Positions 20,386-39,999 of a stretch of 64,000 nucleotides of DNA are shown here, piece by piece. Origin of the DNA: Alphaproteobacteria bacterium (GTDB lineage: Bacteria > Pseudomonadota > Alphaproteobacteria > SP197). The first letter of the stretch is position 1; each line of letters begins with the position of its first letter. A program made the translations under genes and the position numbers. The notes beneath the pieces are model-generated. The model saw only the letters and a program-made list of their open reading frames with translations. It was not told the origin of the DNA and ran no database searches. The stretch covers positions 2,208,001 through 2,272,000 of the forward strand of contig OZ219747.1 in NCBI GenBank assembly GCA_964291265.2. Direction: 5' to 3'.

Positions 20386-20417
20386 GAACTCCCTCCCTTT
20401 GGTTCCTCAACGCCGCA

Positions 20418-20948
20418 TCACGGGTCCCTCAGCACCACATGCGTCACGACCCGTCCGCATCTGGCGCACCGAAGCGGCGATTCGCGCCGCTCTCGCGCCT
20501 TCACAACCGCAGGTAGGGAGGTCGGCAGCAGTCGGGAAGGGTGGTCCGTAACGATTTCTTCAGAACCGGCGTCTCCAGACACCGCCGGAACGTCGCCAAG
20601 CAGCACCACAGCAGACGTCTGCGTGTCCATGATCTCGGCAACCATCGCCGCCCTGGCCTTCAACGCACGCGCCTCCTCCGCCTTGCGGAGCCGGTAACGC
20701 CGCTGGCGGTGACGGCCCGTCTCACGGCCCTTCAGCGTGCTCTGGTAGCGACGACGCGACGCGCGGCGCCGCTCGATCCGGGACCGCTCCCTGCACTCCT
20801 TGGAGCAATACACATGCCCCCGGTCACACGACCGGCAGAGAACAACCTGCCGCTGACACCGCCTGCAGTTGAACAGTCGTCCTGTCGTGCACACCGTCCG
20901 TCTCGAGAGCGGGGGTGGACCCGGACGCAAAATGGCTCGACAATACAC
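20418..20948 (-). CDS. Cys-rich putative Zn-finger protein upstream of istA
   Basis: CRRC, CRSC, YCSKEC, basic stretch, C-terminal CARC; start uncertain. Confidence 0.65.
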   Translation of the reverse strand: MYCRAILRPGPPPLSRRTVCTTGRLFNCRRCQRQVVLCRSCDRGHVYCSKECRERSRIERRRASRRRYQSTLKGRETGRHRQRRYRLRKAEEARALKARAAMVAEIMDTQTSAVVLLGDVPAVSGDAGSEEIVTDHPSRLLPTSLPAVVKARERRESPLRCARCGRVVTHVVLRDP

Positions 20949-21959
20949 GGGAGTTCGGTCCCCCGTGACCGGCTCGTCCGGGTGCTGCGCCGGGGGGCGT
21001 CACAACTCCGCCCGGCATCGCATCGCTCTTTCTCTTGATGCCGATCTAGCATCCACCCGGGGCGGCGGCAAAGACGCCGCCCCGGGACCGGACAACGCGA
21101 CCCGCCCACAGGGAAGACAGACGATCCCGCGAGTGCCTCGGAACCGGAACCCTCCCGGCAACCGTCACCAAGACCGAAGCAGAGGTCGACGGAACCCGAA
21201 CCGGACCAAAACGACAATAGGAAAAGACGGCGGCGCTCGGGGAGACAACCAGCCGAACACTCAAACCACGACAACAGGACGTGACAATAGGACCTGACAA
21301 CAGGGAAGAAACACGACCCTGACAAAGCGCGGCAAATCGCCGAAATCCCGCCGTTCTATGCAGCCATCAACAGGTCAGGATGTCTGAACTTCTGGTCTTG
21401 GATTTTCGCGACGGTAACGGTGCATGCACAGGCAGTGAGCGGAACCACAGGGCTTTTCTTTTGTCGTCCCGGCGCTCGGCGCACGCAGGATTCTGGGGGT
21501 GGACATCCCGTTTTCGCCGTGGCAGTGTGCCGGCATGACGACGCTTGTGACCCCAGATTCCCCTATCGACCTTCACGAGGTGACGGTGCGCCCGACCCGT
21601 GGCGCACGTGAGCACCGGCTCTGGGATCGTCTGGTCAAGGAGCATCACTACCTGCGGTTTCACGGCATCATCGGCAAGGGCCTGCGCCATGTCGCCCTGC
21701 ACGGCGAGACCTGGGTGGCGCTGGTCGGCTGGCAGCCGGGCTCGTTCAAGCTTGCTGCACGCGACCGCTGGATCGGCTGGACTGCGGAGCAGCAGTTCCG
21801 GCGCCTGCATCTGATCGCGAACAATTCCCGGTTCGTCATTCTTGGCCCGAGGTAAGCGTTCGGCCACGCGGTGATTGTTGGTGATATTCACCGGTTGAGG
21901 ATGCGTTTGGGAGGCGCACCACGTGGCGGTTCGCTGTTGGGTCCGAAGACGATGGGTCC

Positions 21960-22195
21960 GGGTCGGGTTGCTCGTCGTTGGGGTGGCGGCAGGGTGATGA
22001 GGCCGTCGCGGTGCATGGCCAGAAAGGCGACATTCGCCATCATGTTCTTGAGGCCCCGTCGGGCTTGTATCAGCCGGTCTCGCGGCAGAAGGCGCGGGCG
22101 ATGGCCGCACGGGTGGGGTGCTGGGTGATCAGGGAGCGCAACAGCGCCATCTCGTGCGCGGTGAAGTCACGGCCGTCGTAACGGCACTCGATCAC
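21960..22195 (-). pseudogene. Truncated N-terminus of a DUF4338-type protein downstream of the IS66 transposase
   Basis: VIECRYDGRDFTAHEMALLRSLI...RAAIARAFCRETG*YKPDG, then after a frameshift MMANVAFLAMHRDGLITLPPP; GTGA overlap with the transposase stop. Confidence 0.6.
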
Positions 22196-23019
22196 CCCGG
22201 TTCCATGAGGTCCCGTCGGCGCTCCGGGGTCATCGACCATGGCAGCCACGGGTCGAGGTCATCCGGCGGCTTGCCGCCGTTCTGCGCGCAGGCCTCAAGC
22301 CACTCATGAAGCCAGCGCCGAACATTGATGTTGTTCATGGCAAGGGTGCCGATGACCGAGTACATGATGGCGGTGAAGGCGGCGCCTTCCTCGCTGTCGG
22401 AGCCGAAGCTCAGCTTTCTCGCGGTCACCGCACCCCGGAGGGTTCTCTCGGCCAGGTTGTTGTCCATGGGCACCTGGGGATGGTCGACAAAGACGCACAG
22501 TCCCTCGCGGTGACGGATCAGGGAACGCAAGGGCTTCGCTTCGCGTGCACCCTCGGGCAAGGCGTCGAGTTCCTCCTGAGCCTGCCTGAACAGCGCCTCG
22601 ACAGCCGCACGAAGGTCCTTCTGCAGGGCATTGAACCTCGCTGACTGACGCTTGCGTGCGGGATCGTAGTGCTTCAGCCGTTGCCCATTCAGTGTGTAGA
22701 TCAGCGCGATCCTGTCGAGCCACTTGTCGCACCACTCTTCCAGCCCCTCTTGGCCTGCCGCAGCCTCGATCACATCGCGCCTGGAGTGCGCCCAGCAAAG
22801 GCAGAGGATCACCTTGCCATCAAGCTCACGCTCCAGTTTCCTGTAGACCACGTAGCGGTCGCAGACAAGGAAGACGGTGCCTTCGGTGGAGGCGAACAGC
22901 ACCATGGCCACCCGGGTGCTGCGTGACGGGTCGATAAGGAAGAAGACGGAGTCGGCGCTGACCGCGGTCCACAGCCAGGCCTTCTGCGAGCGCCCCGAGG
23001 CCTTGAGGGACTGGATGCG

Positions 23020-24938
23020 GTGTGCCAGGCGAACTGGCGGAAGGTAGGGGGTGAAAGTCCCCTGAAACGAAGGAGTAACCAAACCACGTTTCTCCGCGAG
23101 CCGTGCGTCGGTTCCCGCGAGGGGGCAGGCGAAGCGTCGGTAGCGGTACGGATGGGCAGGGCTAATGAGCACCGAAAAGTCCGTTGTTCGGGGTGCCGAG
23201 GCTTTCGCATCGGTCGAAGGCAACATCGCAGGCATCGATTTGGTGAGATGTCGGCGAGCCCCGCGGTGTCGGAGAACCCATGCACGTCCGCACGCCTTCT
23301 GTTGGGACCCTGGGAGGTCTTCGAACTATCCCGCCTGTCGTGGCGGGACCGTGTAGGGAAAGGAGAAAGCCGAAGCCTATGAGGAACGGTTTGAAGAAGT
23401 CGGATGGGGCCGTAAGACCGGTGAAGGCGGCGAACAAGGGAGCGTCAGCTTCTGCGGAGTCGCTGGAGGAAAGGGCCTCAACCAAGGGGAATCCGGGACG
23501 CCAAAGCACGCACCGAACGCAGTGTCGGGCAAGTGTGCCACAGGCGGCGGACCGGATACGGGAAGCTGCAGAGAGGAACCCGAAGGAGCGTCTCACTGCA
23601 CTCTTCCATCACATTACGCCGGACGCGCTCCGGGCGGCCTACTTCGGTTTGAAGAAGGAAGCCTCGGCAGGTGTCGACGGCGTGACGTGGGCGGCGTATG
23701 GCGAGGGTCTGGACGAGCGCTTGCTTGATCTGCACTCGCGCCTGCATCGTGGGGGAGCGTACCGGGCGCCGCCGGTTCGGCGGGTTGAGATACCCAAGCC
23801 GGACGGCGGGACACGACCGCTCGGGATTGCCGCACTGGAGGACAAGATCGTCCAGAAGGCGGTTGTGGATGTGATCCTGACACCGATTTATGAGGTGGAG
23901 TTCCTTGGCTTCAGCTACGGGTTCCGACCGGGCCGAGGGGCGCATGACGCTCTCGACGCCCTGGCGTTCGGGATCGAGCGGCGCAAGGTCAACTGGATAG
24001 TCGACGCGGACATTCAGGGGTACTTCGACACAATCCCGAGGGATTGGTTGATCAAGTTCCTGGAGCATCGCATTGGCGACAGGCGGGTGATCCGTCTGAT
24101 CCGCAAGTGGCTGAACGCTGGCGTCATGACCGACGGATCATGGAGCGACACCGGTGCGGGCACGCCTCAGGGCGCCATTGTCAGCCCCTGCCTGGCGAAC
24201 GTGTTTCTGCACTACGTGCTCGATCTGTGGTTTCACAAGGCATGGCGTCCGAAGGTTCCGAACGGTAAAGCGATCATTGTCCGCTACGCGGACGATATTG
24301 TGGTCGGGTTCCAGCATAAGCGGGATGCGGAGACATACCTTCGCGACGTTCGGGAGAGGCTGGACCGCTTTGGTCTCACCCTTCACCCGGACAAGACCCG
24401 TCTCGTTGAGTTTGGACGGTTTGCCAAGGCGAACCGGCGATCTCGCGGGGCGGGCAGGCCGGAGACGTTCGACTTCCTGGGCTTCACGCACTTCTGCACG
24501 GAGACCCGGAGAGGACGCTTCAGGCTTGGTCGCAAGCCGGTCGCAAAACGGGTCGCAAGGACCCTGGCGCGCATCGAGGAGGTGCTTCGCAATCGACGGC
24601 ATCACGACATATGGGAGGTCGGCATGTGGCTTGGGCGAGTTGTCAATGGCTGGTCCAACTACTTCGCCGTTCCGGGGTCGACCCGATGGCTGCGCACGTT
24701 CCGCCAAAGGCTGCAACGCCTATGGCTGCGAGCGATCCGCCGCCGCTCCCAGCGCCACTGCTTTGACTGGAAGCGATTGGAGCGCATGACCGAGCTTCTT
24801 TGGCCGCGCGTCTCCATCCGCCACCCATGGCCGGACCAGCGGTTTACCGTCAAGCACCCGAGGTAGGAGCCGGATGGATTAACGTCCATGTCCGGATCTG
24901 TGCGGGGGGTGCGCAGCAATGCGCATCCCTACCGCGAC
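23020..24938 (+). mobile_element. Full-length group II intron, antisense to the IS66 transposase
   Basis: GTGTG 5' end, ...ctaccgcgAC 3' end; putative EBS1 cgcatc and EBS2 agtcc complementary to flank gatgcg and ggact. Confidence 0.95.
23535..24866 (+). CDS. ltrA: Group II intron reverse transcriptase/maturase (no endonuclease domain)
   Basis: AGVDG, RPLGI, SYGFRP, GTPQG, RYADD, FDFLGF, X domain; start uncertain (frame open from 23280). Confidence 0.93.
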   Translation: MPQAADRIREAAERNPKERLTALFHHITPDALRAAYFGLKKEASAGVDGVTWAAYGEGLDERLLDLHSRLHRGGAYRAPPVRRVEIPKPDGGTRPLGIAALEDKIVQKAVVDVILTPIYEVEFLGFSYGFRPGRGAHDALDALAFGIERRKVNWIVDADIQGYFDTIPRDWLIKFLEHRIGDRRVIRLIRKWLNAGVMTDGSWSDTGAGTPQGAIVSPCLANVFLHYVLDLWFHKAWRPKVPNGKAIIVRYADDIVVGFQHKRDAETYLRDVRERLDRFGLTLHPDKTRLVEFGRFAKANRRSRGAGRPETFDFLGFTHFCTETRRGRFRLGRKPVAKRVARTLARIEEVLRNRRHHDIWEVGMWLGRVVNGWSNYFAVPGSTRWLRTFRQRLQRLWLRAIRRRSQRHCFDWKRLERMTELLWPRVSIRHPWPDQRFTVKHPR

Positions 24939-27900
24939 CCAGCTGGTCTCGTCGCCGTGGCGCACCGTCAGCCGGTTCTGATGATCGAGGATGGCCTGAG
25001 CGAGAGGCGCGAACATCGGCGTCATCTTCTTCATGCCGCCAGCGATCGTTCCCGGCGCCATCGGCAGTCCCTGGTCTTCCAGCCATCGCGAGACCCGGCG
25101 CAGGGGACGCAAGCAGGCGAAGCGCTCATAGAGCACGCATTCCCAGACACTGATGCCGAAGGGGGTATTCGCAAGCAAGCGCAAAGGTGGCGGCGCGATG
25201 ATCTCCGCAGGCGCCGACGAACACTGACAACCACGGCGCCAACGCCCACGTTCAATCCGCCGGATATGAGCCTTGACATGGACCTCCATGATCGAGGTCT
25301 CGTGGCTGCCGTTGGCCACATAGGGCTCGCCGCAACACGGGCACGTGCGCTGCGATGCCGGTGGATCATGGCGTTCGTGCTTCTCCTTGAGCTTCGGACG
25401 CGGAGTGCGCCCGTGGCCGCTCTTGCCGGGTTGCTGACCCCGCTTGTTCCCGGTGCCTTCCTTCTTCTTCCGTTTCTCGCTCTTCGACCCGAAGCGCGCC
25501 GTCGCGTGCTTGGCACGCGTCCCGCGGAGATTCCTCAGCTCGCTCGCCTGTTCAGCGTTCTTGAGCTTCAGAGCGTCCCTTTCCTGCTCCAGCGCCTCCG
25601 CTCGGGCCTGTCCACGCTTCACCTCCCGGCGAGCCTCCTTGAGCTGATCACGAGTGCGGTCGAGATGAAACTTGAATGTGCCCGCACGGGCACGGGCAGA
25701 ATTCTTCGCACGGCGCAGGTCACGCATACGCGCTTCCGCCGCATCCGCACGAACCCGCTCCGCCTCATAGAGCGCACGCCAGTCAGGCGCCTCGCATGAC
25801 AAGGCCACTGACGCCCGACATAGGCCGTCACCACCTCCCGTCAGCTGCTGTGTCGCTCCGCGCGTCTCGGCAAAAGTCTTCATGGCCTCGACCATAATCG
25901 AGACCAAACGAGTTTACCAGCTCTTTCTCAGACGATAGTCAGCAAGACCCAAACCAACCAAAATCAGCCATCACCGAACGGCCGAACGCTTACGGCCCGA
26001 GAGGGGTGCCGAACCTGGCGTCCCGCGTGCTCGGCCTGAGCCTTCGGCGGCTGTCCGCCGACATCGAGGCCACGCACGGATACCCAGTGTTCCTCGCGGA
26101 GACGTTCGTCGACATCAAGCGCTTCGCCGGAACCTGCTATCGCGCGGCGAACTGGCGCTCGCTGGGATTGACGCGCGGCTTCGGTCGCAAGCCCGGCGGC
26201 ACCGCACGCTTCCGTCACCACGGCCAGCCCAAGGAGATCTTCATGTACGAACTGACCGACGGCGCCGCCGAGGCGCTGAGCCGGGACGCGATCCCGGAGA
26301 GCTGGAACGCGGAGCAGCACGACCAAGCCGGACCGATGGCCGCGTCCGGGCTGCGCAGTCTGTTCGCCTGCCTGGGCGAGGTGCCCGAGTGCCGCAAGCC
26401 CCGGGGCAAGCGCTATCCGCTGAGAACCATTCTCGCGATCGCCGTCGCAGCCCGGCTCGCCGGCTACCGCGGCGTGAGCGCATTCGCTCAGTTCGCCGCC
26501 CTGCTCACCCAGGAACAGCTGGCGGCGGTGGGTGCGTTCTACAGCCCGTCGAAGAAGCGCTACACGGCGCCCACGTCCACAACCTTCCACAGCATCCTCG
26601 CCAACCTGCCGCCCGAGACCCTGGACCACGCCATCGGCCTGTGGACGGCCCAGCAGGCCGGTGCAGACACACCGCTCGCCATGGACGGCAAGGACATCCG
26701 CGGCGCCTCCAGGCAGACCAAAAACGGGCGGCGGATGATGGTCGCAGCGGTCGAGCACGGAACCGGCATGGTCCTCGGCCAGGTCGAGGTCGACGCGAAG
26801 AGCAACGAGATCCCCGCCGTGCGGGACCTCGCCAGCAGCATCGACGTCACGGGCCGCATCGTCACCCTGGACGCGATGCACGCTCAGCACGAGACCGCGC
26901 AACGGCTTCTCGAGCGCCGCGCCGACTATGTCATCACGGCGATCAAGGATAACCAGGAGACCATGCTCGACGACCTCAAGGCCATCGACTTCAAGGGCGC
27001 GGCTTCGTTCGAGACACTCGACAAGGGGCACGGACGCATCGAGCGCCGCCGCTGTGCCGTGGTCGACATCTCCGGCGCCGAGTGGGACGGCTACGCCGCT
27101 CTCCACGGTCGCCACCAAGCCATCCGCATCGAGCGCGAACGCGAGATCTGCAAGACCAAAGAACGCAGTGTCGAGACCACCTGGTGCCTCACCTCGCTCG
27201 CTCCCGAACGCGCCGGACCCGAGATGCTTCTGGCCCTCGTGCGCGACCACTGGGTCATCGAAAATCGACTCCACTACGTACGCGACTTCACCTACGACGA
27301 GGACCGCTGCAGGGTCCATGTGCGCCATCTGCCACGCAACCTCTCCTGCCTGACAAACGCCGCCATCGCCATCGTGCGCTGCGGCGGACATTTCGACTAT
27401 ATGCCCGAAGCCAACCGGCACTACGCCGCCCGCGCCCAGGACGCACTCGACGCTATCCTCATCCCGCCCGGCGGATGAACCTTCGCTCCTGACCCCGCGC
27501 CACAAGCCGGGAACGCGCCGCCTGACGGCGCAACAGGACAGCTCTGTTCGCACACTCGAAAAAACGTGCCTAGTGAGCCCTGATGCACCAGCAGTGCCCA
27601 CTGAAACCAGCCCACAGCGAACCCGGGCGCCTCAACCATGCCGGTCCCTGTCACATCAACAATCCACAGGACTGAAAAAAGAATGGTCCTGAGCGGAACC
27701 ACACAGATCTTGATCTTTGCCATCAACATCAACCCCTGTGGTCGGACATCCATGCGTTGTACGCCATGCCGCACCATCGGCCTCAGGCAAAGACGTGCCG
27801 GACCTGCGCACATTCCGCCTGCCTTGGGATCGGGCGCCTGCAACTATGCGATCCGCCGTCCACACCACATGGCAGCCTGGGATACCGGAGCCGCCAGTTC

Positions 27901-28075
27901 CCAAGACGACCATCTCGCCAAGCTGGCGGAGAATTCGTCAATGCTCTAACATTCACCTTTGGAACATCAAGACGCCGTCAGGCTGAAGGCCTCGCGCCTC
28001 TCCGATAGGGTTTGCGATTGCGGCGTACCACCAACAGTTGGACGGGCGGATACGCGCCGTAGGAGTGAATGGAAG

Positions 28076-28558
28076 ATGCAGAACCCGGAAGAGCATGGAG
28101 CATGTATCGAGACGAAGGGTAAGCTCATGTGGGCGACCTTGATCCTGTTCATGGGAATGATGGCGGGGAGTGATTGGGCGCGAGCTGCCGTTATCGCATC
28201 ATGCGGCCCGTGGACCGGGTACACCTTTGTCTACGAAAGCGAGTTGCATGACCAATCGGGTTGGATTGCGGATGCTATCGAGTCGACCACCATCTTCACC
28301 GGCACCGACAGTGAAGAAGTATCCGATGTAATCATCGAGAGAAAAGGTTTGGATGGCAATAACTTGACCCAGCGTGCCAGCGACTACGGTCATGTGATCG
28401 AGGTGCACAAGGCGGGCCCGATCCGCCATGTGATTGTCTTGTGGGGTCCCGTGACGGAGCTTTATCATGTGAACACAGAGGCCAAGAAGGCATCTCTCTT
28501 AACCACCAAGTCCGGCCCTATCGAGTTGACGCATGCCTATAGTGGAGAGTGCGAGTGA
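28076..28558 (+). CDS. Hypothetical, probably exported protein
   Basis: Lower-GC ORF with a hydrophobic signal-like segment (LMWATLILFMGMMAG); start may be 28127. Confidence 0.55.
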   Translation: MQNPEEHGACIETKGKLMWATLILFMGMMAGSDWARAAVIASCGPWTGYTFVYESELHDQSGWIADAIESTTIFTGTDSEEVSDVIIERKGLDGNNLTQRASDYGHVIEVHKAGPIRHVIVLWGPVTELYHVNTEAKKASLLTTKSGPIELTHAYSGECE

Positions 28559-30555
28559 ACATGAGTGCTTCCGGGGACGCCCGCGTCTTGCAACTTGACG
28601 GCGTCTTGACGTTCCAAGGGAACAGCTCGTCGATAAGGTCGCTCGGATCGCCTGTAGCGAGTGCCTGTCAGAAGGCCCTTTCTCAAGCGATGACACGTGT
28701 CGATGTGGCAGGGCTGCGCCTCTGATGCGCCCCCGCTTTTGTCTCATGTCAGGTGATACCTCACGCTCTGAACGGTTCATTGTGCCGTACCCAGCGTGAT
28801 CGTCCCGGCCGTTGTCATGCTTCGGACAAAGGCTCCCCTTCCCGCCCTTATGCTTTCACCGTCCCACATGCATATGGGGATCTCGTTTCCGTTTTCTTTC
28901 ACCGGGTGCTTCGCTTCGTCTCCCCTCGCCAGGCGAGTCACGCACCTGGATCGCCCAGTTCAGCCTTGCGAGACCCTGCCAGATATTCTTCGCTCCCGGG
29001 AGCGGCCGACGTGGCGTGGGATGCGACCCAAGGAGGCGCCCGAGGTCGATGACGACGGCACGGACATCGGGCATCGCCCGGACCTCCCGGTGACCCTGGG
29101 ACCTTTCAACCAGACACTGTTGAATCCATCTTTTTCAGCATATCGAGTTCCTGCAGTTTCCGCATATTTCGGTGATGTTCGACGAAGGTGAGGAGGATTT
29201 CGTATCCCTGCCAGAGTTTCTCAGTCCCCGGCAGGGGTTGACGTTTTCTGGGAATGAAGCCCGCCAGGCGTGCGACGTCGACGGCGAAGGCTGCGATGGT
29301 CGGTTCGGGATCGGGAGGTCCACGCGGCGTGCGCTGTCGGCTGACCTTATAGATGTTCAGGACCGTGATCTCGTCGCGGTGGACGATGTGGCTTGCCGGG
29401 GTGTCTGGTGCCGAGCGTGCGAGGCGCTCGACGGTCATGACGCGGCATGCGGTGATGGCGTCGAAGGCCAGACACTTCCTCAGATCGTCGACCTGGTTGA
29501 GGCGCCGGTCCTTGATCCGGGTGCCGACCTTCAGGGCCTTGAAGTACTCTTCGATCCACCATCGCCTCTCGTAGAAGGAGACGGTCTTGAGGGCATCGTC
29601 TGCGGTGACGTCGCCTTCGGTGGTGAGCAGCATCCAGTCGAGAGGATCGCGGCCTGGCGGTGGGGCGGGTTCCGTGACCCGCACGGCCATCATGGAGAGC
29701 GGCGGCGTTGTCTGAGGCTTCTTGTCCGGCGGAGCCAGGTCGACCCTTGCCGCACGGACTTCGAGGCGTACGCCCTTGCGCTCCTTGCGACGACGCGGCC
29801 CTCCGCAGGCCGCGATGTCGATCTGCTTCGTTGCGATGCACGGCTCGTCCGCCATGTAGTCCCAAAGGTCCCGGCAGGCGCCCGTTGCGGTGACCACGCG
29901 GCGCCGTGTCGAGCGCCTGACGCGCACCAGCAGACCGGCCTCGTGCTCCGGGCCAGCAGGTCCCAGATGTCGCCTTCACGGTCACAGATCACCAACACCC
30001 TTGTCGAAGGACAGGCAGCGGCCAGTTCCACGGCCTTGTCGTACCCGTCGAGCCAGCGCCGGCTCTCCTTGTCGTCTGGCTCGTCCTTCTTCTGATCCGG
30101 CTTGAGACGGAAGTCGGCGTCGAGATGGAACAGGCCGAGGGATGAGCCGCCTTCGCTGAAGGCAACCCCGGCATGGGCCGCCATGCCAAGGGCGCCCGAG
30201 CCGCCGCCGCCGATGTCAACAAGACCCTTGGTCGCCTCCAAGCCATTGTAATTCAAGAACGTCGTGTCCTGGATGGCAAGAATCAGGCGCTGCGAACGGC
30301 AGCGTTCCACCATCGCTTCCTGGTGCCCCTCAAGGATATGCTCCATCGTCACCCTCGGATTTGACAACAGGCGGTAGGCCGCCTTCTGCTCCGCCTCGCC
30401 GGGGAAGATCACCGGCAGGATCGCGCCGGGACGATCGTTCCACGCCCGGCCCATGGTGACAAGGCGCTCGCGGATGCGCACGTCACTGTGGCTGCTGCGG
30501 GCGTACTCCCTCATCGCCCAGTCGGTCCTGTCATCACCGACAAGGGGCGCCGCCT

Positions 30556-32902
30556 CTTTCAAAGGGTCGGACTTGTATAGGTGATTCGTTTCGTGCATGC
30601 TGCGGGCATGCAGGTTGGTCTCCGCCATTTCGATTCGCAGACGCTTGACTGGTTTGCCGGCGCGTTGCGCTCCGCCGACGCCACCCGTCACGGTCTGGCA
30701 CGCGAGCTTTGCGAGCGCACCGGTTGGCGCAACGCGCTCGGCCGTCCGTGCCTGTCGGCGGCGGCGAAGGTGCTGCCGGCGCTCGCCGAGCGCGTGGGGT
30801 TGGAGCTTCCGCCGCCGCGGAGCGTGCCTGATCCGACCGTCGTGCCCGCCGTCCCGGCCGGTGACGTCCCCGACACCAAGCTGGTCTGCCTGCTGGAGGA
30901 TCTCGGCCCGGTCTCGCTCGAACCGGTGGGCGAGGCCGACGATCGCCGGCTGTGGGAGGCGATGATGGCGACGCACCACCCGCTGGGATGGACGCGCTCG
31001 CCCGGCGGCCAGGTGCGCTACTGGATCCGCTCGCAACGCCACGGCACCCTCGGCGGGATCGGCTTCGGGTCCGCGACCTGGCAGTTGCGGGCGCGGGATG
31101 AGTGGATCGCATGGTCCGCCGACGCCCGTGCCGCCAACATCGAGCGTGTGATCTGCGGTCATCGGTTTCTCCTGCTTCCCGGCGTTCGGGTCTACGGACT
31201 GGCCTCCCGGGTCCTGCGCATGGCGGCGGAGCGCATCGCCGACGATTGGGAGGCTCGCTATGCGGTGCGCCCGGTGGCGGCCTACACTCATGTCGGTGCG
31301 GAGCACAGCGGCTATTGCTACCACTGCGCCGGCTGGACCGTGGCCGGGCGGACCAGCGGGCGCCGGGGCAAGGCCGGCACGGTGCGGGTCCTGGCCCTGG
31401 AGAGCGGCTGGCGGACGGTGCTCCACGGGACACAGCGCCGTCCACTCGGCGCCCTGGCGGGCGTCTATGACGGCACTGACGCGGACTGGGCGGAGCGGGA
31501 GTACGGGCGCACGCGCCATACCGACGGTCGGGTGCGGCGACGCATCGTTGACATGGGCCGGGCCTGGATGAAGAACATGGGGGAGGACCTGCCGATCATC
31601 TTTCCCGAGAAGGCGGAGCAGAAGGCCGCTTATCGGTTGCTGTCGAACCCGAGGGTCTCCATGGAGCACGTTCTGGAAGCGCATGTTGAGGCGACCGTGG
31701 AGCGTTGTCGGACAGAGCCTCTTGTCCTTGCGATACAGGACACGACGGCGATCAACTACAGCGGCCTGGAGGCCACGAAGGGTCTGGACAAGCTCGGCGG
31801 CGGCGGCAAGGGGAGCGTCGGCATCCTCGCCCACGCCGGTCTGGCGGTGACGTCGGAGGGCCGGCCGCTGGGCCTGTTCACGATGGATGCGGCCTTTCGG
31901 CAGGAGCCCGGGGAGGACAGTCAGCGCTGGGTCACCGGGCTTGAGCGGGCCCGGGAGCTCGCGGCGGCCTGCCCGGACACGCGTGTCGTCTCGGTCTGCG
32001 ACCGCGAGGGCGACTTCTGGGAACTGCTCGCCCATGCCGCGGACGCCGGAGCCGCGCTGCTGGTGCGTGCGAGCCGTTCGGCGAAACAGCGCGTGGGTGA
32101 GCCCGACGGCAAAAAGACGTGCCTGTGGAAGCATGTCGCGGCCCGGCCGCTGGTCGCGGTGACGGAGCTGACGATCCCGGCCGCTGGCGGCCCGCGCGCC
32201 CGCAAGGAGCGCGTCGCCCGTCTCGAGATCCGCACGGCACAGGTCGAGGTGGCGCCGCCGCAAAAAGAGCGCGACGCGGAGCCTGTGTCCATGTTCGCGG
32301 TCTCGGCCAGCGAGGCCGGAACCGGTGACGGCGACGAGGCCCTGCACTGGCTGCTGCTGACCACCGAGCGCCCGGCACCAGGGGAGGCCGAGGCCGTGCA
32401 CGCGGCGACCGTCCTGGGCTGGTACCGGACGCGATGGAGCATCGAGACCTGGTTCCGCACGCTGAAGACCGGGACCCGGATCAAGGACCGCCGGCTCGAC
32501 AGGGCCGACGACCTGAAGACGTGCCTTGCCTTCGACGCCGTCACCGCCGTCCATGTTGCCGACCTGACCGTGCTTGCGCGCGAGCGTCCCTTGACCCCGG
32601 CGAGCGAGGTGTTTGCCGAGGAGGACATCGACCTGCTCCGCACGCTGCTGGAATCCCAGGGTCACCGGGAGGTCCGGGCGATGGGCGATGTCCGTGCCGT
32701 CGTCATCGGCCTTGGGCGCCTTGTCGGGTGGCATCCCACGCCGCGCCAGACGCTCCCGGGAGCGAAGAAGCTCTGGCAGGGTCTCGAAAGGCTGAACTGG
32801 GCGATCCAGGTGCGTGACGCACTTGGCGCAAGAAGGCGGCGCGAAGCACTCGGTGAGAGAAGGCGGGAGTAACATCCCTATACACGCGTGGGTGGTTGAA
32901 AG
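30556..32902 (+). mobile_element. IS4-family element with intact DUF4338-transposase fusion
   Basis: TIRs CTTTCAA...GTATAGG at both ends; 9-bp TSD gcgccgcct. Confidence 0.92.
30608..32872 (+). CDS. DUF4338 (DruA-like) domain fused to IS4/Tn5-type DDE transposase
   Basis: HHPLG...ARDEWIAW...RFLLLP...GYCYHCAGW, then KAAYRLLSN, AIQDTT, CDREGD, YRTRWSIETWFRTLK. Confidence 0.9.
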   Translation: MQVGLRHFDSQTLDWFAGALRSADATRHGLARELCERTGWRNALGRPCLSAAAKVLPALAERVGLELPPPRSVPDPTVVPAVPAGDVPDTKLVCLLEDLGPVSLEPVGEADDRRLWEAMMATHHPLGWTRSPGGQVRYWIRSQRHGTLGGIGFGSATWQLRARDEWIAWSADARAANIERVICGHRFLLLPGVRVYGLASRVLRMAAERIADDWEARYAVRPVAAYTHVGAEHSGYCYHCAGWTVAGRTSGRRGKAGTVRVLALESGWRTVLHGTQRRPLGALAGVYDGTDADWAEREYGRTRHTDGRVRRRIVDMGRAWMKNMGEDLPIIFPEKAEQKAAYRLLSNPRVSMEHVLEAHVEATVERCRTEPLVLAIQDTTAINYSGLEATKGLDKLGGGGKGSVGILAHAGLAVTSEGRPLGLFTMDAAFRQEPGEDSQRWVTGLERARELAAACPDTRVVSVCDREGDFWELLAHAADAGAALLVRASRSAKQRVGEPDGKKTCLWKHVAARPLVAVTELTIPAAGGPRARKERVARLEIRTAQVEVAPPQKERDAEPVSMFAVSASEAGTGDGDEALHWLLLTTERPAPGEAEAVHAATVLGWYRTRWSIETWFRTLKTGTRIKDRRLDRADDLKTCLAFDAVTAVHVADLTVLARERPLTPASEVFAEEDIDLLRTLLESQGHREVRAMGDVRAVVIGLGRLVGWHPTPRQTLPGAKKLWQGLERLNWAIQVRDALGARRRREALGERRRE

Positions 32903-33910
32903 GCGCCGCCTGGCCCATGACACGCTCAGGCTCCCGGCACAGCACGGCGCGCCAGTCAGGCGTCAGGGGCTTCATCCATACGGACCGCTGCACGCCCGGG
33001 CCGGTGGCCCCGGGAGGTCGACCCGAGGTCATCTCCTCACAGCGCTCCCAGCCCGCCGCCCGGTAGCTCACGCCGCTGTGCTCGGGACCCACATACGTGT
33101 ACGCCAGAACCGGCTTCACCCCGTACTTCTCGTGCCAGTCCGTAGCCAGACGCCGGCAGGCACAGGCCAGGGCATGGGAGGCCAACTCCTTCACATCCAC
33201 CGATGGAAGAATCAGGAAGCGATCATTGTTGACGATCTCGCCGAGGTGGGCGACACGGGCTCCCTGGGACCAGCCGATGAAGTCGTCGCGCGCCTTCTGG
33301 TGCCAACTCGCCGCACCAAACACCAGGCCGCCGAGGCGACCGTGGCGCGACGAGGTGATCCAGTAGCTCACCCGGGCTCCGGGTGCGCACGCCTCGCCTT
33401 CGGGATGCCAGGTCGCCATCATCGAACGGGCCAGGCGCTTGTCCTCGCCCTCGCCCACAGGCTCCAAGGTGACCTCTCCAAGGTCCTCCAGAGAACAGGC
33501 GAGGAGCTTGTCGGGATAGTCCCGCTCAAGGGTGTCGGCGCCGGTGCCGAAGGCATCAGGCCTTGGTGCAGGAAGGGCGATGTCGAGCGACGCAGCAAGG
33601 TCAGGCAGGGCCGCACGCGCCGAGGCAAGACACAGCTCGCCCTTCGCGTTGCGCCACTCCTCGCGCTCGCACAATCCCCGCGCCAGAGACGAGCGTGTGC
33701 TGCCCTCGGCAGCCGACGCCGCCTTCAGCCAGTCAACCGTCGTCGCAGACAGATGTCGAAAGCCGATCCTCATGGGCCACTATGTAAGGCCTCATGAACG
33801 TCGAGTCAAGCCTGTCCCGTTGAAAGCCCTGGGACTCCAGAGTCGTGCGGAACAGGTCGATGTCCTCCTCCGCAAACACTTGCTCGCCGGGGTCTCGGGA
33901 CGTTCGCGCT

Positions 33911-34032
33911 GTAAGCTTCGGTCACACGGTGATTGGCGCGATGACAGCGTTGAGCGAATGTAGGCGAGTCTCCGGTTATGCGTAATTGTCTCTTTCCTCC
34001 TCTTCATCGTCATCCATTGACTGAACGCTTAC
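33911..34032. mobile_element. 122-bp IS66-derived miniature element
   Basis: Ends gtaagcttcggtca / tgactgaacgcttac resemble the TIRs of IS66 21852-25993; no TSD. Confidence 0.6.
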
Positions 34033-36078
34033 CGGTGGGGTTGGTGTGATCCGCCAGGTTGTCGGCTTCGTCGCATTCAGATCATTTTCCAGAGCCCGGA
34101 CCAGTCCCTCAATCCGGAACGGCGCGTCGACGGCGCCATCGGCAGGCCCCTCGAACTCTATTTCGGCATGTCGGGTTCCGAGAAGTACGACCGGATTGCC
34201 GATCTCCTCGAGATGGTCGGACTCGACCCCGATGACGCGGGACGCTTTCCCGCCGAGCTGTCGGGGGGTGAGCGCCAGCGTGTCTCCATTGCCAGGGCCT
34301 TTGCCGCCGAGCCTGACGTCATCCTGTGTGACGAAGTTCTCTCCGCCCTCGATACCGTGGTGGCCGCCCGTGTGCTCGAACTGATGAAGGAACTGCGGGA
34401 ATCCCAGCAGATGGCATACGTCTTCATCAGCCACGATCTCTCGACGGTCGCGTCGATCGCTGACCGGGTGGCGGTCATGTATGCCGGCAGGATCGTCGAC
34501 GCCGGGTACACCGACGATGTGTTCGCCCCGCCGCATCATCCCTACACGCAGCTTCTCATCAACTCCGTGCCGGTGCTGCGCCAGGGATGGCTCGAGGAGG
34601 TCATCACAAGCCGCGAGACGGAAGCGGGCATGCGGTGTGGCGAACTGGCGGAAGGTAGGGGGTGAAAGTCCCCTGAAACGAAGGAGTAACCAAACCACGT
34701 TTCTCCGCGAGCCGTGCGTCGGTTCCCGCGAGGGGGCAGGCGAAGCGTCGGTAGCGGTGCGGATGGGCAGGGCTAATGAGCACCGAAAAATCCATGTTTC
34801 GGGGTGCCGAGGCTTTCGTAATGGTCGAAGGCAACATCGCAGGCATCGATTTGGTGAGATGTCGGCGAGCTCCGCGGTGTCAGAGAACCCATGCACGTCC
34901 GTACGCCTTCTGTTGGGACCCTGGGAGGTCTTCGAACTATCCCGCCTGTCGTGGCGGGACCGTGTAGGGAAAGGAGAAAGCCGAAGCCTATGAGGAACGG
35001 TTTGAAGAAGTCAGATTCGGCCATAGTGTGTGCTGGGCAGCGCCCAGATCAGGTGGGTTCAAGTCCCACTGGCGCTCGGGTAAGGGGCGCCATATCCAAA
35101 AGCGGGGGTCATTCCTCGCTGGCCGGGGTGAGCGAATAAGCGACGCCCTAAACGGGCACGAAGTTGGAAACGACGGACACTGCCAAGGGAAGAGCTAAGG
35201 TAACTACTCACCCCCTACTGATGACGGATCGTTTTTCCTGACGGGTTCGGATCCGGCATTTTCTCTTGCCGCCTTCACTTGCTCGCTGCCGATGATCGGA
35301 TGTGCGTGTTCCGACTGACAAGAAGCGGATCGATCTTCGGCTTCAGCTCCACGTTCCGGCCTTGTATGACCAGGTTTTGTCCCCGTGATGATGCAATCAT
35401 CCACAGCGGTTGGCTGCCTTTCCAATCCTCTGGAGATATGCGCTTGACATTGTAGGAGGGGCACTCTACATGCTGGCCATCGGGGCGGTTTGCGTCGGAG
35501 ATATTGATGGCGGCATGGTACGGATCGAAGGCGACGACGGGTCTGAGCCAGGCGATCGTCGCGGCCATGCCGCCGCATGACGTGTACATCGAGGCGTTCC
35601 TTGGGGGCGGCGCGATCATGAAGCGCAAGCCTCCGGCGCTACGCAGCATCGGCATCGACCTCAACCGACGGGCGATCGACACCTTCCGCTGTGACTATCC
35701 GGTGGAGCTTCACCAAGGCTGCGCCCTGCGTTTTCTCGAGACCTTCGCCTTCCAGGGCCGCGAGCTGGTCTACTGCGACCCGCCTTACGTGCAGTCGACG
35801 CGCCGGTCGCAGCGCCGCTACCGCTTCGACTGCACGGACGACGACCATGCAGGACTTTCCTACGCTACGGCTGATTTTTCGGGAAGCCGATGAATCGCGC
35901 CCGAATCGGCCATCTGATCTTTCGCGAGGCCGACGAATCGAGGCCGAATCGGGATGTCCTGGACGGATTCCGTGGCTTCAGTGCCGTCCGCATGGCGACA
36001 CCGGCAGCGTTTTCGGCCCGGATGCTTGGTTCTTGATGTTCTAGCAGCGTTCCGGGGTCCCCGGACGCTCAAGGCGTC

Positions 36079-38075
36079 TCAGGGCCGGGTCAGGGCGTTG
36101 ATGGCCTCGCGACGGTCCAGTTGTAGGCGGCGCCGGGTTTCGGCGAGGCTTTCGGCCTCGCGGCGGTTGGCGAAGATCACCGCGAGCGCGATGTTGTTGA
36201 GGCTGGCCCGGTTCGCCGGGCCGTTGTCGGTGCGGGTCAGGCAGGCGTCTTCGCCGAAGACGCAATCCCTTTGTCGATGGTTCAGATTTTCCACGGCCCA
36301 GTGGCGGCGGTTCAGTCGCAGCAACTCTTCCGGCGACGTGGCCCCCGTATCGAGAGAGGTGATGATGTAATCGGTTTCCGTGTAATCCTTCTCTTCTTGC
36401 TTCCCGGCATCGCCGGAGCCTTTCTTCCCGGCATCGCCGGGGCCTTTCTTCCCGGCATCGCCGGGGCCTTTCTTCCCGGCATCGCCGGAGCCTTCCTTCC
36501 CGGCATCGCCGGGGCCTTCCTTCCCGGCATCGCCGGAGCCTTCCTTCCCGGCATCGCCGGAGCCTTCCTTCCCGGCATCGCCGGAGCCTTTCTTCCACGG
36601 CTCCCGATAGCGGGTGATGCGGGCGACCTGACGGACGCCCGGATAGTTGATCAGACCGTCCAACGGGACGAGGACGCTGATCGAACGCTGCTCCAGTCGA
36701 CCGTGCGCCTTGTCGAACGGCTCCGTGAAGTGGCCGGTAGCGTCTTTTTGCCAATTGATGCTGTCGAGGATGGCGAAGGTCTCCGGAGCGTTGCCCTTGA
36801 CGACGAAGACGTAATCCGCGCGTTGTGTGATCAGCTTTGCGGTATGGCGTGTCGTGTGCAGCGCGTCGAGGGTGATCACCTTGCCGCCGATGTCGCTGCG
36901 CTCCAGGAGATCGTGCATGGCCGCCAGTTCGCCGCCTTCGTCGTTGAAGTTCAGGAGGGAAAAGGGCGCGCCGGTCTCATGGTCGACAAGGGCCACGGTC
37001 TCGTGACGGCCATCGCCGTTGCGGTTGGCGCCGCGGATGCGCTTGCCGTCGGCGGCGAGTGCACGGGCGAGGTGAAGCCGAGGCCGGGACCAGCGGGTGA
37101 GCACATCCTCCAGAGCCTCGGGGTCGATCGACTGGATAACCCGGTGGATGGTGGACTTGGAGACGGGCTCGCGAAGCCCCGTCTTCGGGTTAAGCCACGC
37201 GCCGATGGCCTCCAACTCCTCCTGGGACAGGGACCGCGCGAACTGCGCGGCGGCGACACAGCCCTTCATGTTGGCGAACTCGGCGAGCACGTGCACGGTG
37301 AGCACCGATGCCGCGGTATGCTTCCTTCCCTGCGCCCGGCGGAAGTCGGGAATGGCCGCGAGCTCGGCGTAGAGCGAGCGCAGCACCTTGGGGTCCCGGG
37401 GCGCCAGTTCGGGGCATGAGGGCGGCGCCACGTCGGGGGGAAGCGGCAGCGGGCTCGACAGCAGCGCCCGGGCATCGCGCCTCAGTGCCGTAACGTAGAT
37501 ATCCTTGGGCTTGCCGTGAGGATCGGTGTAACGCCCGTTGGAGCGGGCAAACCCCTTGGTCTCACCCAGACACGTCCAGCCCGCAGCCCTCAACATCGTG
37601 CCGGCAAAGATCTCCGGATCGCAGAACGTCTCCGCCAGCAGCACCCCGTGGCCGTGCACCTGCAGCCAATCGTCACAGAGCCGGCGCGTCATGCACGCAA
37701 GGAAACTCAGAAGCAAGGTTCGCAAACACCCCGGGCTTGGAGATGAGCAAGAACCGCGTGTTGTTGGCCACCACCCCGAGCCGCTGGAACTGCTGCTTAA
37801 GGCTTCCAGCCGGTCCACTGGTCGCGGGGAGCGCACTTGAAGGCGCCGTTCTGCCACGCCGCCAGCCCCAGCCAATGGCCCCTGAAGGTCGCAAGGTAGC
37901 GCAGACCGCGACCCGCCAGGCGACGGAAGCCGAGATAGTGGTGCTTGTTCATCAGCGCGTCCCACAGCGGACGCTCCTCCGGCCTCGCCAGGCGAACATC
38001 GACCTCAGACAGGGAAAAACCCTCAGGTGCTTCCTGATGGATCGGGACAGCTTCCATGAGCTTGCGAATCGACAT
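36079..38075 (-). pseudogene. DUF4338-ISAs1 transposase fusion, frameshifted near 37800
   Basis: HHYLGFR...PRDQWTGW in one frame, then NNTRFL, ETFCD...GTMLRAAGW, ADGK, DALH, HGRLE, HWAVEN in another. Confidence 0.85.
36400..36595 (-). repeat. 24-bp in-frame tandem repeat x8 (K[KE]G[SP]GDAG)
   Basis: Unit cttcccggcatcgccggRgccttY on the + strand, no spacers. Confidence 0.95.
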
Positions 38076-38520
38076 GACCGGACCGTCGCACATCCCAAGC
38101 GGGATGGCCAGCGGAAAATGTCCGCGCGCGTGCAACATACGAACGCCTGACGTCAAGTGAAATCAAGCGAATTCCAGCGTGGGAAGGCCTTGACGACCAT
38201 GTTGCGCTCCTTGACATCCTGACGTCGCTGCCCTGCCAGGTGATGATCTCCGGCTATCCCTCGCGGCTCTACGACACGCACCTCGCCGGCTGGCGCTCGG
38301 CCGAGATCCAGGTCAACAACCAGGCCTGCGTTGTCACCGAGAAGCTGTGGTTCAACTTCGCACCGGGCCGGCCGCACTGGCATACGTGTGCGGGCAGGAA
38401 CTCGATCGACCGCCAGCGCATCAAGCGCCTCGCAGAGAGCTGGGCGCGGCGCTACCGGACGATGCCCGAAGGCGAGCGGCTCGCCGTGCTGGCGGCAGTC
38501 ATGGCGGTGGAGGCGTCGTC

Positions 38521-39999
38521 ATGGCGAGCGTGAACGGCACGTCTGTGCGCCAGGAGGCCGACGTCTTCCAGAAGCAGTTCCAGGATCTCCGCAAGCAGGG
38601 CAAGGTCAACCAGGAGTGCGAGGAGCTCTTCCGCGGCATGCTGATGCTGATAAAGCTGTTGCTGACCGTGCTCATGGAGAAGATCACACGCAAGACAAGC
38701 CGGAACTCCGGTCTGCCGCCATCGCAGACTGACAAGGACGAGAGCGCGAGGCGCACCGGGAGCCACGGCAAGGGCCCGAAGCCGAACCAGCAGACGGGCG
38801 ACAACCTGCGCACGACCACCATCGAGGAGACGATCACCGTCGATGCCTGCGACGCCTGCGGCGCCGACCTCCACGACGTCGACCCCGTCGACCGGGAGTG
38901 CCGCGTCCTCTACGACATCGTGTTCGAAGTCGTCGAGCGCCGCGTCGAAGCCGAGATCAAGGAATGTCCGAAGTGCCGGGCCCGGACCAAGGGCCGGTTC
39001 CCAGACAACATGCCGGGCCCCCTGCAGTACGGCGTCAGCATCCAGGCCCTCGTCATCAACCTGCTGATCGCCCAGATGCTGTCCCTGCGTCGTGCCGTCT
39101 CGCTCGTGCACGCGATCTCCGGCATCAAGCTCTCCGAGGCGACCTGCCTCGGCTATGTCCGGCGCTTTCACGATGCCCTCGCATCATGGGAGGAGGCCGC
39201 CGTGGCCCATCTCCTGCAACAACCGGCCCTGCATGTCGACGAGACCGGCTTCCGGGTCGCCGGCAAGACCCAATGGCTCCATGTCGTCACCGACGGCACC
39301 CTGACGTGCAAGTTCCCGCACCCCAAGCGCGGCCGGGAGGCGATCGAAGAGATCGGCATCATCCCGCGCTACAAGGGCGTCCTGATCCACGACTGCTGGG
39401 CTGCCTACATGGGCTACGATCAATGCCGCCACCAACTGTGCGGCAGCCATCTCCTGCGCGAACTGACCTTCGTCGTCGAGTCCAACGGCTACCGCTGGGC
39501 GCGACTGATGAAAAGCCTACTGCGCGAGGTCTCCCGCAGGGTCAACAAGAGCGCATCCAAGACCTTGAACGAGGCCGACCGCCGGGCCGTGCGCAAGCGC
39601 TACCGCACCATCCTCACCCAGGGCGCCAAGGAACTGCCCGACATCCCGCCACGGACGAAAGGAAAACGGGGACGCATCGCAAAGTCCGACGCGCACAACC
39701 TGCATGAACGTCTCGTGAAACACGAGAAGTCCGTCCTGCGCTTCATGAAGGACCCCAACGTCAGTTTCACAAATAATACCGGAGAGCAGAAGATCAGGAT
39801 GACAAAGGTCAAGATCAAGGTGTCCGGATGTTTCCGCACCATGCCCCACGCCAAGGCATGGTGCCGCGGCTCAAGCTACCTCACCACCATGGACGCACTC
39901 GGCTACAACCCTCACGTCGCCATCCACATCGCCCTCGACGGAAAGGCCGTAGACATCCTCAACCAGCACTACGGACAACCAGACCCTAACAAGGGGTGA
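38521..39999 (+). CDS. IS66-family transposase (TnpC-like), apparently intact
   Basis: SRNSGLPPSQ, CDAC...CPKC, HVDETG, IHDCW, LCGSHLLREL, FTNNTGEQKIRM, KVSGCFR. Confidence 0.92.
   Translation: MASVNGTSVRQEADVFQKQFQDLRKQGKVNQECEELFRGMLMLIKLLLTVLMEKITRKTSRNSGLPPSQTDKDESARRTGSHGKGPKPNQQTGDNLRTTTIEETITVDACDACGADLHDVDPVDRECRVLYDIVFEVVERRVEAEIKECPKCRARTKGRFPDNMPGPLQYGVSIQALVINLLIAQMLSLRRAVSLVHAISGIKLSEATCLGYVRRFHDALASWEEAAVAHLLQQPALHVDETGFRVAGKTQWLHVVTDGTLTCKFPHPKRGREAIEEIGIIPRYKGVLIHDCWAAYMGYDQCRHQLCGSHLLRELTFVVESNGYRWARLMKSLLREVSRRVNKSASKTLNEADRRAVRKRYRTILTQGAKELPDIPPRTKGKRGRIAKSDAHNLHERLVKHEKSVLRFMKDPNVSFTNNTGEQKIRMTKVKIKVSGCFRTMPHAKAWCRGSSYLTTMDALGYNPHVAIHIALDGKAVDILNQHYGQPDPNKG

Follow-up and report, generated by a model that had tools for sequence, protein, structure and literature searches.

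A predicted GNAT domain resembling phage Mu Mom is linked to transposases of several insertion sequence families in an alphaproteobacterial genome

Results

Nested insertion sequences in the window

The window analyzed here is a stretch of 64,000 nucleotides from an alphaproteobacterium (assembly GCA_964291265.2, contig OZ219747.1, positions 2,208,001 to 2,272,000), and all coordinates below are those of the window. An insertion sequence is usually regarded as a transposase gene lying between two ends. In the window, Pfam places PF14236 (DUF4338/DruA-type) 5' of two ISAs1 and two IS50-type transposases, with matches at 21499–21855 (E = 5e-12), 30581–32872 (7e-24), 32703–33773 (6e-22) and 37797–38156 (4e-10), and a weak one, below the cut-off, at 26006–27478 (5e-4).

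These genes lie in elements that have inserted into one another. ISAs1-A (21448–27691, plus strand; 10-bp target duplication) carries a GNAT-transposase fusion gene that is interrupted by IS66-A; the 5' half of its PF14236 GNAT domain, which lacks an N-terminal helical module, is found at 21535–21851 (plus), and the 3' half is found together with the ISAs1 DDE transposase at 26002–27478 (plus). IS66-A itself (21852–25993, minus; 8-bp target duplication) has its transposase gene split by a group II intron (23015–24936, plus) whose reverse transcriptase (23280–24866) is antisense to that gene. It also contains the remnant of a passenger gene (21888–22195, minus), of which only the N-terminal helical module is left, disrupted by a stop and a frameshift; a deletion of about 557 bases has removed the entire GNAT core. 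The preliminary description had placed a truncated gene of this type after the IS66 transposase (21960–22195); the remnant is there, but owing to the loss of the core it does not have the quoted motif, and the reading that it carries the catalytic motif was rejected.

IS50-A (30556–32902, plus) has short terminal inverted repeats and a 9-bp target duplication and encodes a fusion of 754 amino acids (30608–32872, plus), in which a helical module (residues about 1–70) and a GNAT core (about 99–275) are followed by a Tn5-type transposase. The core that superposes on Mu Mom corresponds to 30902–31432 (plus; model residues 99–275). IS50-A interrupts the GNAT-transposase fusion of IS50-B (29103–33826, minus; 9-bp duplication), whose transposase is frameshifted as well. 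Downstream lies MTase-IS66 (35200–40007, plus; 8-bp duplication), with a D12-type adenine methyltransferase gene followed by an IS66 transposase gene (38521–39999, plus), the start of which it overlaps. The two halves of the methyltransferase gene (35507–35849 and 38193–38533, plus) are separated by ISAs1-B (35850–38192, minus; 9-bp duplication), whose fusion gene (36079–38075) carries two single-base insertions within the domain.

Accordingly, the fusion at 30608–32872 is the sole intact one in the window, the other three being interrupted by nested elements or carrying frameshifts. The fusions are nevertheless real, since intact copies are present elsewhere in the genome. The domain had previously been described on two ISAs1 and two IS4/Tn5-type transposases, all four of which are borne out as fusions with only one of them a single open frame, and as recruited by three transposase families, which is correct for fusion to ISAs1 and IS4/IS50, while IS66 has a separate gene. 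The motif quoted for it (running from HHYLG to ETFVD and beyond) fits the ISAs1 copies; the two IS50 copies depart from it, with Pro replacing the Tyr after His and ETFVD absent.

The IS50-type protein scores 274.8 bits against the IS50/Tn5 group of IS4 (NF033590; cut-off 160) and shares its Tn5-type DNA-binding domain and 9-bp duplications; it differs in about 290 residues added ahead of that DNA-binding domain and in inverted repeats that agree over only about 7 bases. The ISAs1 proteins score 205 bits, a value from intact copies, and 145 bits against NF033564 (cut-off 70), with the C...G ends and 9–10-bp duplications of that family, but possess about 200 additional N-terminal residues, which comprise the GNAT core but no helical module. 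The IS66 elements have the PF03050 transposase, GTAA...TTAC ends and 8-bp duplications of their family, and are set apart by a passenger that is either a gene for this GNAT, upstream or downstream, or a D12-type adenine methyltransferase gene overlapping the transposase start.

Occurrence of the domain

In the whole genome, 116 loci of the domain were found by tblastn and 85 PF14236 matches by Pfam (82 above the cut-off), while none of 14 control genomes had a Pfam match; the abundance of the domain in this genome is far beyond chance. Intact copies comprise 32 fusions and two IS66 passenger genes. The domain is carried by 18 of 23 ISAs1, 37 of 45 IS50 and 4 of 4 IS4-type loci, and a fusion to a second IS4 group (NF033592) also occurs. 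The families linked to it in this genome are thus ISAs1, IS4 (with two groups) and IS66. At E = 0.001 the domain family amounts to 13,889 clusters at 50% identity, a number that will take in DruA and other distant kin. The phage collection searched gave no match, and the plasmid search gave two records, one annotated as “DUF4338 domain-containing protein” and the other as “ISAs1 family transposase”. No RNA record with the domain was listed, an outcome that has no bearing on expression.

Among related IS66s with one terminal-repeat type, the slot upstream of the transposase holds a D12 methyltransferase at 5 loci, a gene for this GNAT at 2 and nothing at 6. Besides the two intact passengers, the genome contains 16 IS66-A copies that have matching 8-bp duplications without the core, two of which keep an open transposase frame of 600 codons. 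The methyltransferase-bearing IS66 elements reported earlier were confirmed, with three in the window and 12 full-length D12-type frames in the genome. The suggestion of a convergent strategy gains support, because methyltransferase, GNAT or nothing alternate in one slot of one IS66 subgroup. It does not extend to every insertion sequence type in the window: the two IS21-like copies have no DNA-modifying enzyme in the scanned ORFs.

Predicted fold and likeness to Mom

The first 291 residues of the fusion at 30608–32872 adopt a GNAT fold in the AlphaFold model (pLDDT 88.9). Among 48,161 representative chains, Mom of phage Mu (8BV8) ranks first, with Z = 14.9 and an rmsd of 3.2 over 157 aligned residues, and the next chain reaches Z = 12.9; ordinary acetyltransferases follow at Z = 11–13. 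In Foldseek, ordinary acetyltransferases head the list and Mom is fifth by E-value, with the highest TM-score by query (0.42) among the matches listed. The Mom-like PHROG 1384 was matched at E = 3e-4 across 37 residues, and the best ESM Atlas matches are Mom-containing clusters (0.88–0.90). The domain is predicted to be a GNAT whose closest solved relative is Mom, in line with the earlier guess of a GNAT/Mom-like fold.

At the level of sequence the relationship is distant, with 12% identity. The profile-profile score against Mom is weak (E = 0.0024, probability 12%), and the profile-profile alignment of the IS50 fusions with Mom was misaligned and left out. No window protein matched the Mom family PF25680 at E = 0.001, Mu Mom itself scoring 253 bits, and when the free-standing protein was compared by sequence with solved structures, there was no match (best E = 0.63). 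The domain also differs from Mom in an additional inserted helix bearing an Arg-Asp-x-Trp motif, in the N-terminal helical module, and in being carried by insertion sequences, in most cases as a transposase fusion; its modifying activity is putative. The N-terminal module gave generic three-helix HTH matches only (Z up to 5.2; Foldseek E > 1), and no family was named for it in the ESM Atlas.

Mom is a homodimer that transfers glycyl from Gly-tRNA to adenine N6 in double-stranded DNA. Its HTH-like insertion (residues 175–209) is missing in the domain, which has a loop of 15–25 residues in place of 52. According to PMC13219725, this insertion is essential for activity, and the acyl donor of Mom is Gly-tRNA, not acyl-CoA. 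Lack of an acyl-CoA pocket had been offered as a way to refute the Mom-like reading, but it is unfit for that use because Mom itself uses Gly-tRNA.

Candidate active-site residues

Mom activity depends on R111, S124, D149, R151, H58, Y59 and Y159 according to the same paper (PMC13219725). The domain has likely equivalents of H58, S124, G156 and Y159 and candidate equivalents of R111 and D149. The His and Ser, which align with H58 and S124 by profile comparison, are kept in 417 and 413 of 419 homologues, respectively. An Arg kept in 417 of 419 is the candidate counterpart of R111; profile alignments place it one or more residues off, so that the match rests on its strand position and on its spacing to the Ser, which is 14 in 290 of 299 rows and 13 in Mom. 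The D149 column is acidic in 239 of 270 non-IS50 rows. An Arg three residues past this column, one residue later than R151, is present in 117 of 150 non-IS50 rows and 34 of 149 IS50 rows.

The equivalents of Y59 and D149 are mostly retained outside IS50. Of 149 IS50 fusions, 133 have Pro in the Y59 column and 73 have Gly in the D149 column, and both window copies lack both equivalents, whereas His (149/149), Arg (148/149) and Ser (147/149) are retained. Conservation of the catalytic positions, which had been proposed as a check on the fusions, holds for His, Arg and Ser, while the counterparts of Y59 and D149 are lost in many members of the IS50 lineage.

Motif A of GNAT proteins reads Q/R-x-x-G-x-G/A, and Ser or Thr is common after this loop in ordinary members. 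The conserved Ser of the domain follows such a motif-A-like loop, R/K-x-x-N/G/H-L-A/G. Its fourth residue is Gly in 59 of 149 IS50 rows, and in 108 of 150 rows outside IS50 it is Asn; the loop of Mom contains a conserved Glu.

Selection and descent

The core is under purifying selection, as is its transposase: dN/dS is 0.08–0.51 for the core in 19 of 19 pairs, and 13 fusion pairs give 0.21–0.59 for the transposase. Constraint is strongest on the free-standing IS66 passengers (0.08–0.25). Among 101 IS50 fusions, pairwise identities of core and transposase are correlated (rho = 0.89), and the domain has long been co-inherited with each transposase lineage. A tree groups it by transposase family. 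Such a tree had been proposed for counting independent fusions, but all five groupings compared by AU tests were retained (p = 0.14–0.60), so that different orders and numbers of fusions are compatible with it.

Discussion

We consider, at a probability of roughly 0.4, that the domain is a Mom-type GNAT acyltransferase, fused or adjacent to the transposase, which would acylate DNA bases and shield the elements from restriction as they pass between hosts. The best reading is an accessory, likely DNA-acylating enzyme that would aid the spread of the element and be dispensable in cis. The conserved His, Arg and Ser may form a Mom-like active site, and delivery to DNA could depend on the transposase or on the N-terminal helical module, either of which would replace the HTH insertion of Mom. 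The target would presumably be adenine, and the acyl donor either a charged tRNA or acyl-CoA. The benefit would arise when an element moves horizontally, not during strand transfer, and this could explain why IS66 copies that lost the core continued to spread within one genome. The structural and sequence matches to Mom, the conserved residues, purifying selection and the alternation of passengers in the IS66 slot all speak for this reading.

That core-less IS66-A copies have spread (16 against 2 intact passengers) and that six related IS66 loci have no passenger both count against this reading. So does the copy number, as 32 intact fusions would probably require tight control of a DNA-hypermodifying enzyme. 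The weak profile matches to Mom, the lack of its HTH-like insertion, the divergent Y59 and D149 columns of the IS50 fusions and the ordinary GNAT character of the loop ahead of the Ser weigh against it as well.

If the domain does modify DNA, Mom-type hypermodification would extend from phages to transposons, possibly with new base chemistry and DNA-labelling enzymes, and with a hint at the role of DruA in Druantia type I. A wider proposal, which we hold to be doubtful, is that at least six transposase groups (ISAs1, IS50, the second IS4 group, IS66, IS630 and ISAzo13) each adopted one Mom-related adenine hypermodifier, interchangeable with an adenine methyltransferase. If true, it would mean a widespread, undescribed self-marking of DNA by the smallest mobile elements. 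It would also reveal a new origin of modified bases in bacterial chromosomes and give the first functional handle on the DUF4338/DruA fold. A literature search found no paper on the fusion; the Mom surveys Iyer 2009 and Iyer 2013, which lay outside this search, may mention Mom-like domains in mobile elements.

An active GNAT with a substrate other than DNA, which would use acyl-CoA to acylate the transposase, some protein of the host or a tRNA, is unlikely but the strongest of the alternatives. The position of ordinary acetyltransferases in both structural searches agrees with it, as does the loop before the Ser, which is nearer the usual CoA-binding motif than that of Mom, and DUF4338 is treated as a GNAT possibly targeting proteins in PMC10853773. 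On the other hand, Mom is 2 Z units ahead of all other chains, and three sequence-based searches indicate either Mom or XF1762, a relative of Mom. The elements showed no antitoxin-like gene, which would disfavour a tRNA-acetylating toxin in more than 30 copies.

Dam methylation times the movement of IS50 and IS10, and the domain could likewise modify DNA to regulate transposition, by marking the element ends, the donor site or DNA that is already occupied. The evidence from fold and residues is identical for this reading and for Mom-type protection from restriction, fusion to a transposase would carry the enzyme to the element ends, and the alternation of methyltransferase and GNAT in one IS66 slot fits as well. 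We regard it as slightly less probable than a non-DNA substrate, in view of the IS66 copies that spread with normal duplications after losing the core, the separation of the IS66 gene from the transposase, and the nesting of elements in each other, with no broad target immunity visible.

Less probable again is a non-catalytic module derived from a Mom-like enzyme, which would bind nucleic acid or a host factor and aid the targeting or stability of the transposase. That many IS50 fusions have lost the counterparts of Y59 and D149, the missing HTH insertion and the attached three-helix HTH-type module, generic as its matches are, speak for it, and it is most plausible for the IS50 lineage. However, His, Arg and Ser are near-invariant even there, and the strong constraint on the free-standing IS66 passengers is more readily explained by an enzyme than by a tethered adaptor.

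It is very improbable that the domain is a captured piece of Druantia hitchhiking without function, a reading suggested by its Pfam family name and by a DruE-like helicase about 440 kb from the window, but refuted in large part by values of dN/dS well below 1 and by the clustering of families in the tree. Membership in Druantia was also rejected: the PADLOC DruA models (PDLC00001 and PDLC00002) gave E = 4e-6 to 1e-3 on three of five proteins, whereas true DruA-type proteins reach 4e-80 and 1e-291, and none of nine ORFs in the 18 kb around the helicase matched DruA–D. DruA of Druantia type I shares PF14236 and the N-terminal half of the core; true DruA-type proteins lack the His-Tyr and Asn-Leu-Ala-Ser motifs, and the motifs of the C-terminal half differ. 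As the preliminary description had stated, no further Druantia gene is recognisable here: the neighbours are transposases, DruB–E do not adjoin, and the domain occurs in many copies on mobile elements. For annotation, the 85 “DruA” matches of this genome represent insertion sequences and not defence genes.

Nested elements and domain fusions in the window

Mapping of element ends against the genome revealed a nest of mobile elements at 16-41 kb of the window, each flanked by target duplications of 8-10 bases. ISAs1-A (21448-27691) has IS66-A (21852-25993) inserted within its domain, and a group II intron in antisense orientation (23015-24936) in turn interrupts IS66-A. IS50-B (29103-33826, minus strand) is interrupted by IS50-A (30556-32902, plus strand), and the methyltransferase of MTase-IS66 (35200-40007) by ISAs1-B (35850-38192, minus strand). 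Pfam matched PF14236, the DruA-named family formerly called DUF4338, at five window sites, all 5' of an ISAs1 or IS50-type transposase. The preliminary description had placed the domain ahead of such transposases as fusions; the arrangement holds, but only IS50-A has a single open frame (754 residues), the others being interrupted or frameshifted, and the ISAs1-B domain has two 1-base insertions relative to an intact copy. Likewise, the truncated IS66 gene is present at 21888-22195, but as the N-terminal helical module alone, about 557 bases having been lost relative to the intact gene.

Distribution of the domain and its IS66 slot

In this genome, tblastn found 116 domain loci and Pfam 85 matches. 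An intact core (the enzyme-like part) and a near-complete transposase share one frame in 32 cases, namely 24 IS50-type (five families), 4 NF033592-type IS4 (one family) and 4 ISAs1 (two families); moreover, two intact free-standing domain genes each lie 3' of an IS66 transposase. A domain match is located within 500 bases of the transposase at 18 of 23 ISAs1, 37 of 45 IS50 and 4 of 4 IS4-type loci, and at 5 of 72 IS66 and 1 of 38 IS21 loci. The five ISAs1 loci without such a match, and five of the eight such IS50 loci, are at least 90% identical to families that bear the domain and resemble split copies.

Within the genus the family was found in 10 of 18 genomes, and within the phylum in 19 of 401. 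When the best 150 of 13,889 cluster representatives were classified by comparison with our own references, they comprised fusions to IS50 (37), IS4-type (18), ISAs1 (1) and IS21-like (1) transposases, 4 C-terminal fusions to IS66, 73 free-standing genes and 16 unclassed proteins, which include one IS630 and two ISAzo13 fusions by NCBIfam. For 12 free-standing genes with flanks, a non-random choice from the best matches, nine directly adjoin an IS66 transposase and three have no neighbour matching the reference transposases. In four other genomes, GNAT-ISAs1 fusions (loci L024, L026, L028 and L041) are broken into two frames at six or seven consecutive A, which would fit a programmed frameshift.

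A second IS66 subgroup, like IS66-A below, is loosely tied to a passenger gene: the position upstream of related transposases holds a D12-type adenine methyltransferase at 5 loci (4 genomes), this GNAT at 2 loci (2 genomes) and the terminal repeat alone at 6 loci, the uncounted loci being fragments or without flanks. Motif I and DPPY are both present in the methyltransferase, of which this genome has 12 full-length frames. That one slot can hold either a DNA-modifying enzyme of known class or the GNAT is the strongest contextual argument for a role in DNA modification, though drawn from few genomes. As for substrate, donor and benefit, we infer as most likely (probability about 0.4) an accessory Mom-type acyltransferase: the putative enzyme would mark DNA, and the mark would shield the element during transfer between hosts.

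Two further methyltransferase-carrying IS66 elements lie at about 298-1630 and at 47529-55294; the latter is split by an IS21 copy, and its methyltransferase (47685-48299) is 61% identical.

Predicted fold and putative active-site residues

Residues 1-291 of the IS50-A protein were modelled by AlphaFold2 on a 100-row alignment (pLDDT 88.9). Foldseek matched the model to GNAT acetyltransferases, with the phage Mu enzyme Mom (PF25680, PDB 8BV8) at rank 5 and with the highest query TM-score among the rows shown. The exhaustive structure search put Mom first (Z 14.9, rmsd 3.2, 157 residues), followed by AAC(6')-Ib (Z 12.9). The model thereby agrees with the proposal of a GNAT fold akin to Mom, and DUF4338 is already termed GNAT in PMC10853773. 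Matches among viral models included a Mom at rank 10. At the sequence level, agreement was weak for PHROG 1384 (E 3e-4), the XF1762 family (E 0.075), Atlas clusters containing PF25680 (0.88-0.90) and the Mom profile compared with the domain profile (E 0.0024). The N-terminal module, predicted as three helices and a hairpin, has only a generic likeness to HTH domains and is absent from the ISAs1 fusions.

The substrate could instead be a protein or tRNA, the foremost alternative and in itself unlikely. Next comes DNA marking that serves regulation of transposition, which seems to us rather doubtful.

Mom moves glycine from Gly-tRNA onto adenine N6 and needs or uses R111, S124, D149, R151, H58, Y59, Y159 and an HTH-like insertion, according to PMC13219725. 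Among 419 of 428 homologues (9 partial rows dropped), all collected with profiles of the domain itself and 116 of them close relatives of one protein, the His and Arg are each conserved in 417 and the Ser in 413. The His, Ser, Asp, Gly and Tyr align directly with Mom residues; the Arg was matched to Mom's by strand and spacing, not by direct alignment. Outside IS50, 239 of 270 rows have an acidic residue in the D149 column; among the 149 IS50 rows, 73 have Gly there and 133 have Pro in the Y59 column. That the domain is a non-catalytic module, IS50 being the likeliest case, is improbable. Unlike Mom, the domain lacks the HTH-like insertion, and its loop ahead of the Ser is nearer than Mom's to the usual CoA-binding motif, so that the donor may be a charged tRNA or an acyl-CoA. 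By analogy, the domain would work like Mom, if at all, and we do not place it within the Mom family.

Selection, history and dispensability

Purifying selection is evident in the core, with dN/dS of 0.08-0.51 in 19 pairs of related elements, close to the transposase values (0.21-0.59 in 13 fusion pairs), by a simple counting method whose ratios are overstated in GC-rich DNA. Beside these values, functionless cargo is very hard to credit. In 101 IS50 fusions, mean identity is higher in the core (0.49) than in the transposase (0.43), and the two covary (rho 0.89, pairs non-independent).

All 75 IS50 rows share one branch of a 226-row core tree, and a 57-row tree has 9 label changes (minimum 7, shuffled mean 33); rows omitted were close relatives, randomly thinned. 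The preliminary description had proposed recruitment by separate transposase families. The trees do sort by IS family, but AU tests rejected none of five groupings, which leaves several numbers, orders and sources of the fusions compatible with the trees. It follows that the domain entered each transposase lineage long ago and has persisted there; it must also have passed between families several times.

Of 28 IS66-A left ends, 20 reach a core-less remnant of the passenger (the free-standing gene beside the transposase), 16 of these with matching 8-base duplications; at one end the passenger is complete but interrupted by an insertion, and for seven none was found within 6 kb. Two distinct passenger deletions have spread among the copies, and two core-less copies keep an open 600-codon transposase frame. 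Since core-less copies spread, the GNAT core is dispensable in cis for IS66-A. Its function could possibly be supplied in trans from other copies; the genome has more than 30 intact domains. Six ISAs1-B copies (contig positions 1903161, 2087738, 2801707, 2874836, 3367135 and 3803524) have the core intact and share one transposase break, and therefore were probably moved by another copy.

Comparison with Druantia and published work

We rejected Druantia membership for the IS-borne domain: PADLOC DruA models match it weakly and true DruA-type proteins strongly, and the motifs of the latter differ. As previously described, no other Druantia gene is recognisable in the window; the single DruE-like helicase of the genome lies about 440 kb from the window, and none of 9 ORFs beside it matched DruA-D. 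This YprA helicase (1408 aa; locus at about 2.709-2.715 Mb, L016:8654-15164) is preceded by a 771-aa ORF without PADLOC match, possibly forming a two-gene Druantia-like system. In another genome (L047:10622-17938), a Tn7-like element has a strong DruA-type gene directly after its tnsB, tnsC and tniQ, and then, in order, an unknown gene (404 aa) and one for a HerA-like ATPase; of 9 ORFs scanned there, none matched DruE. True DruA may also move with transposons.

Our literature search found no paper on the domain-transposase fusion, although published Mom-homologue surveys and one supplement may bear on the point, and the architecture is already apparent in database labels (P0235). Two sources describe DruA-like folds in six Synechococcus phages (Phold preprint) and, in jumbo phages, Mom domains joined to nucleases (PMC7824862). 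The window contributes the close co-occurrence of four fused lineages with the two kinds of IS66 passenger, the proliferation of IS66 copies that lack the core, and the common methyltransferase/GNAT slot.

Other features of the window

A 5.3-kb IS21-like element (16053-21372 and 49314-54633; about 36 near-identical genome copies) contains istA, istB, a Toprim-domain gene, a small Cys-rich ORF and internal repeats. The group II intron has about 15 copies, recurrently at one IS66-A site and antisense to the transposase; there are also shorter derivatives, and fragments lie at 11833-12495, 34630-35025 and 40706-40967. The ISAs1-B transposase has an in-frame array of 24-base repeats (about 36390-36600) whose number differs among copies. 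At 55331-56095 lies a Fic-domain gene, and at 2536-3342 a gene of the DNA-alkylation-repair family.
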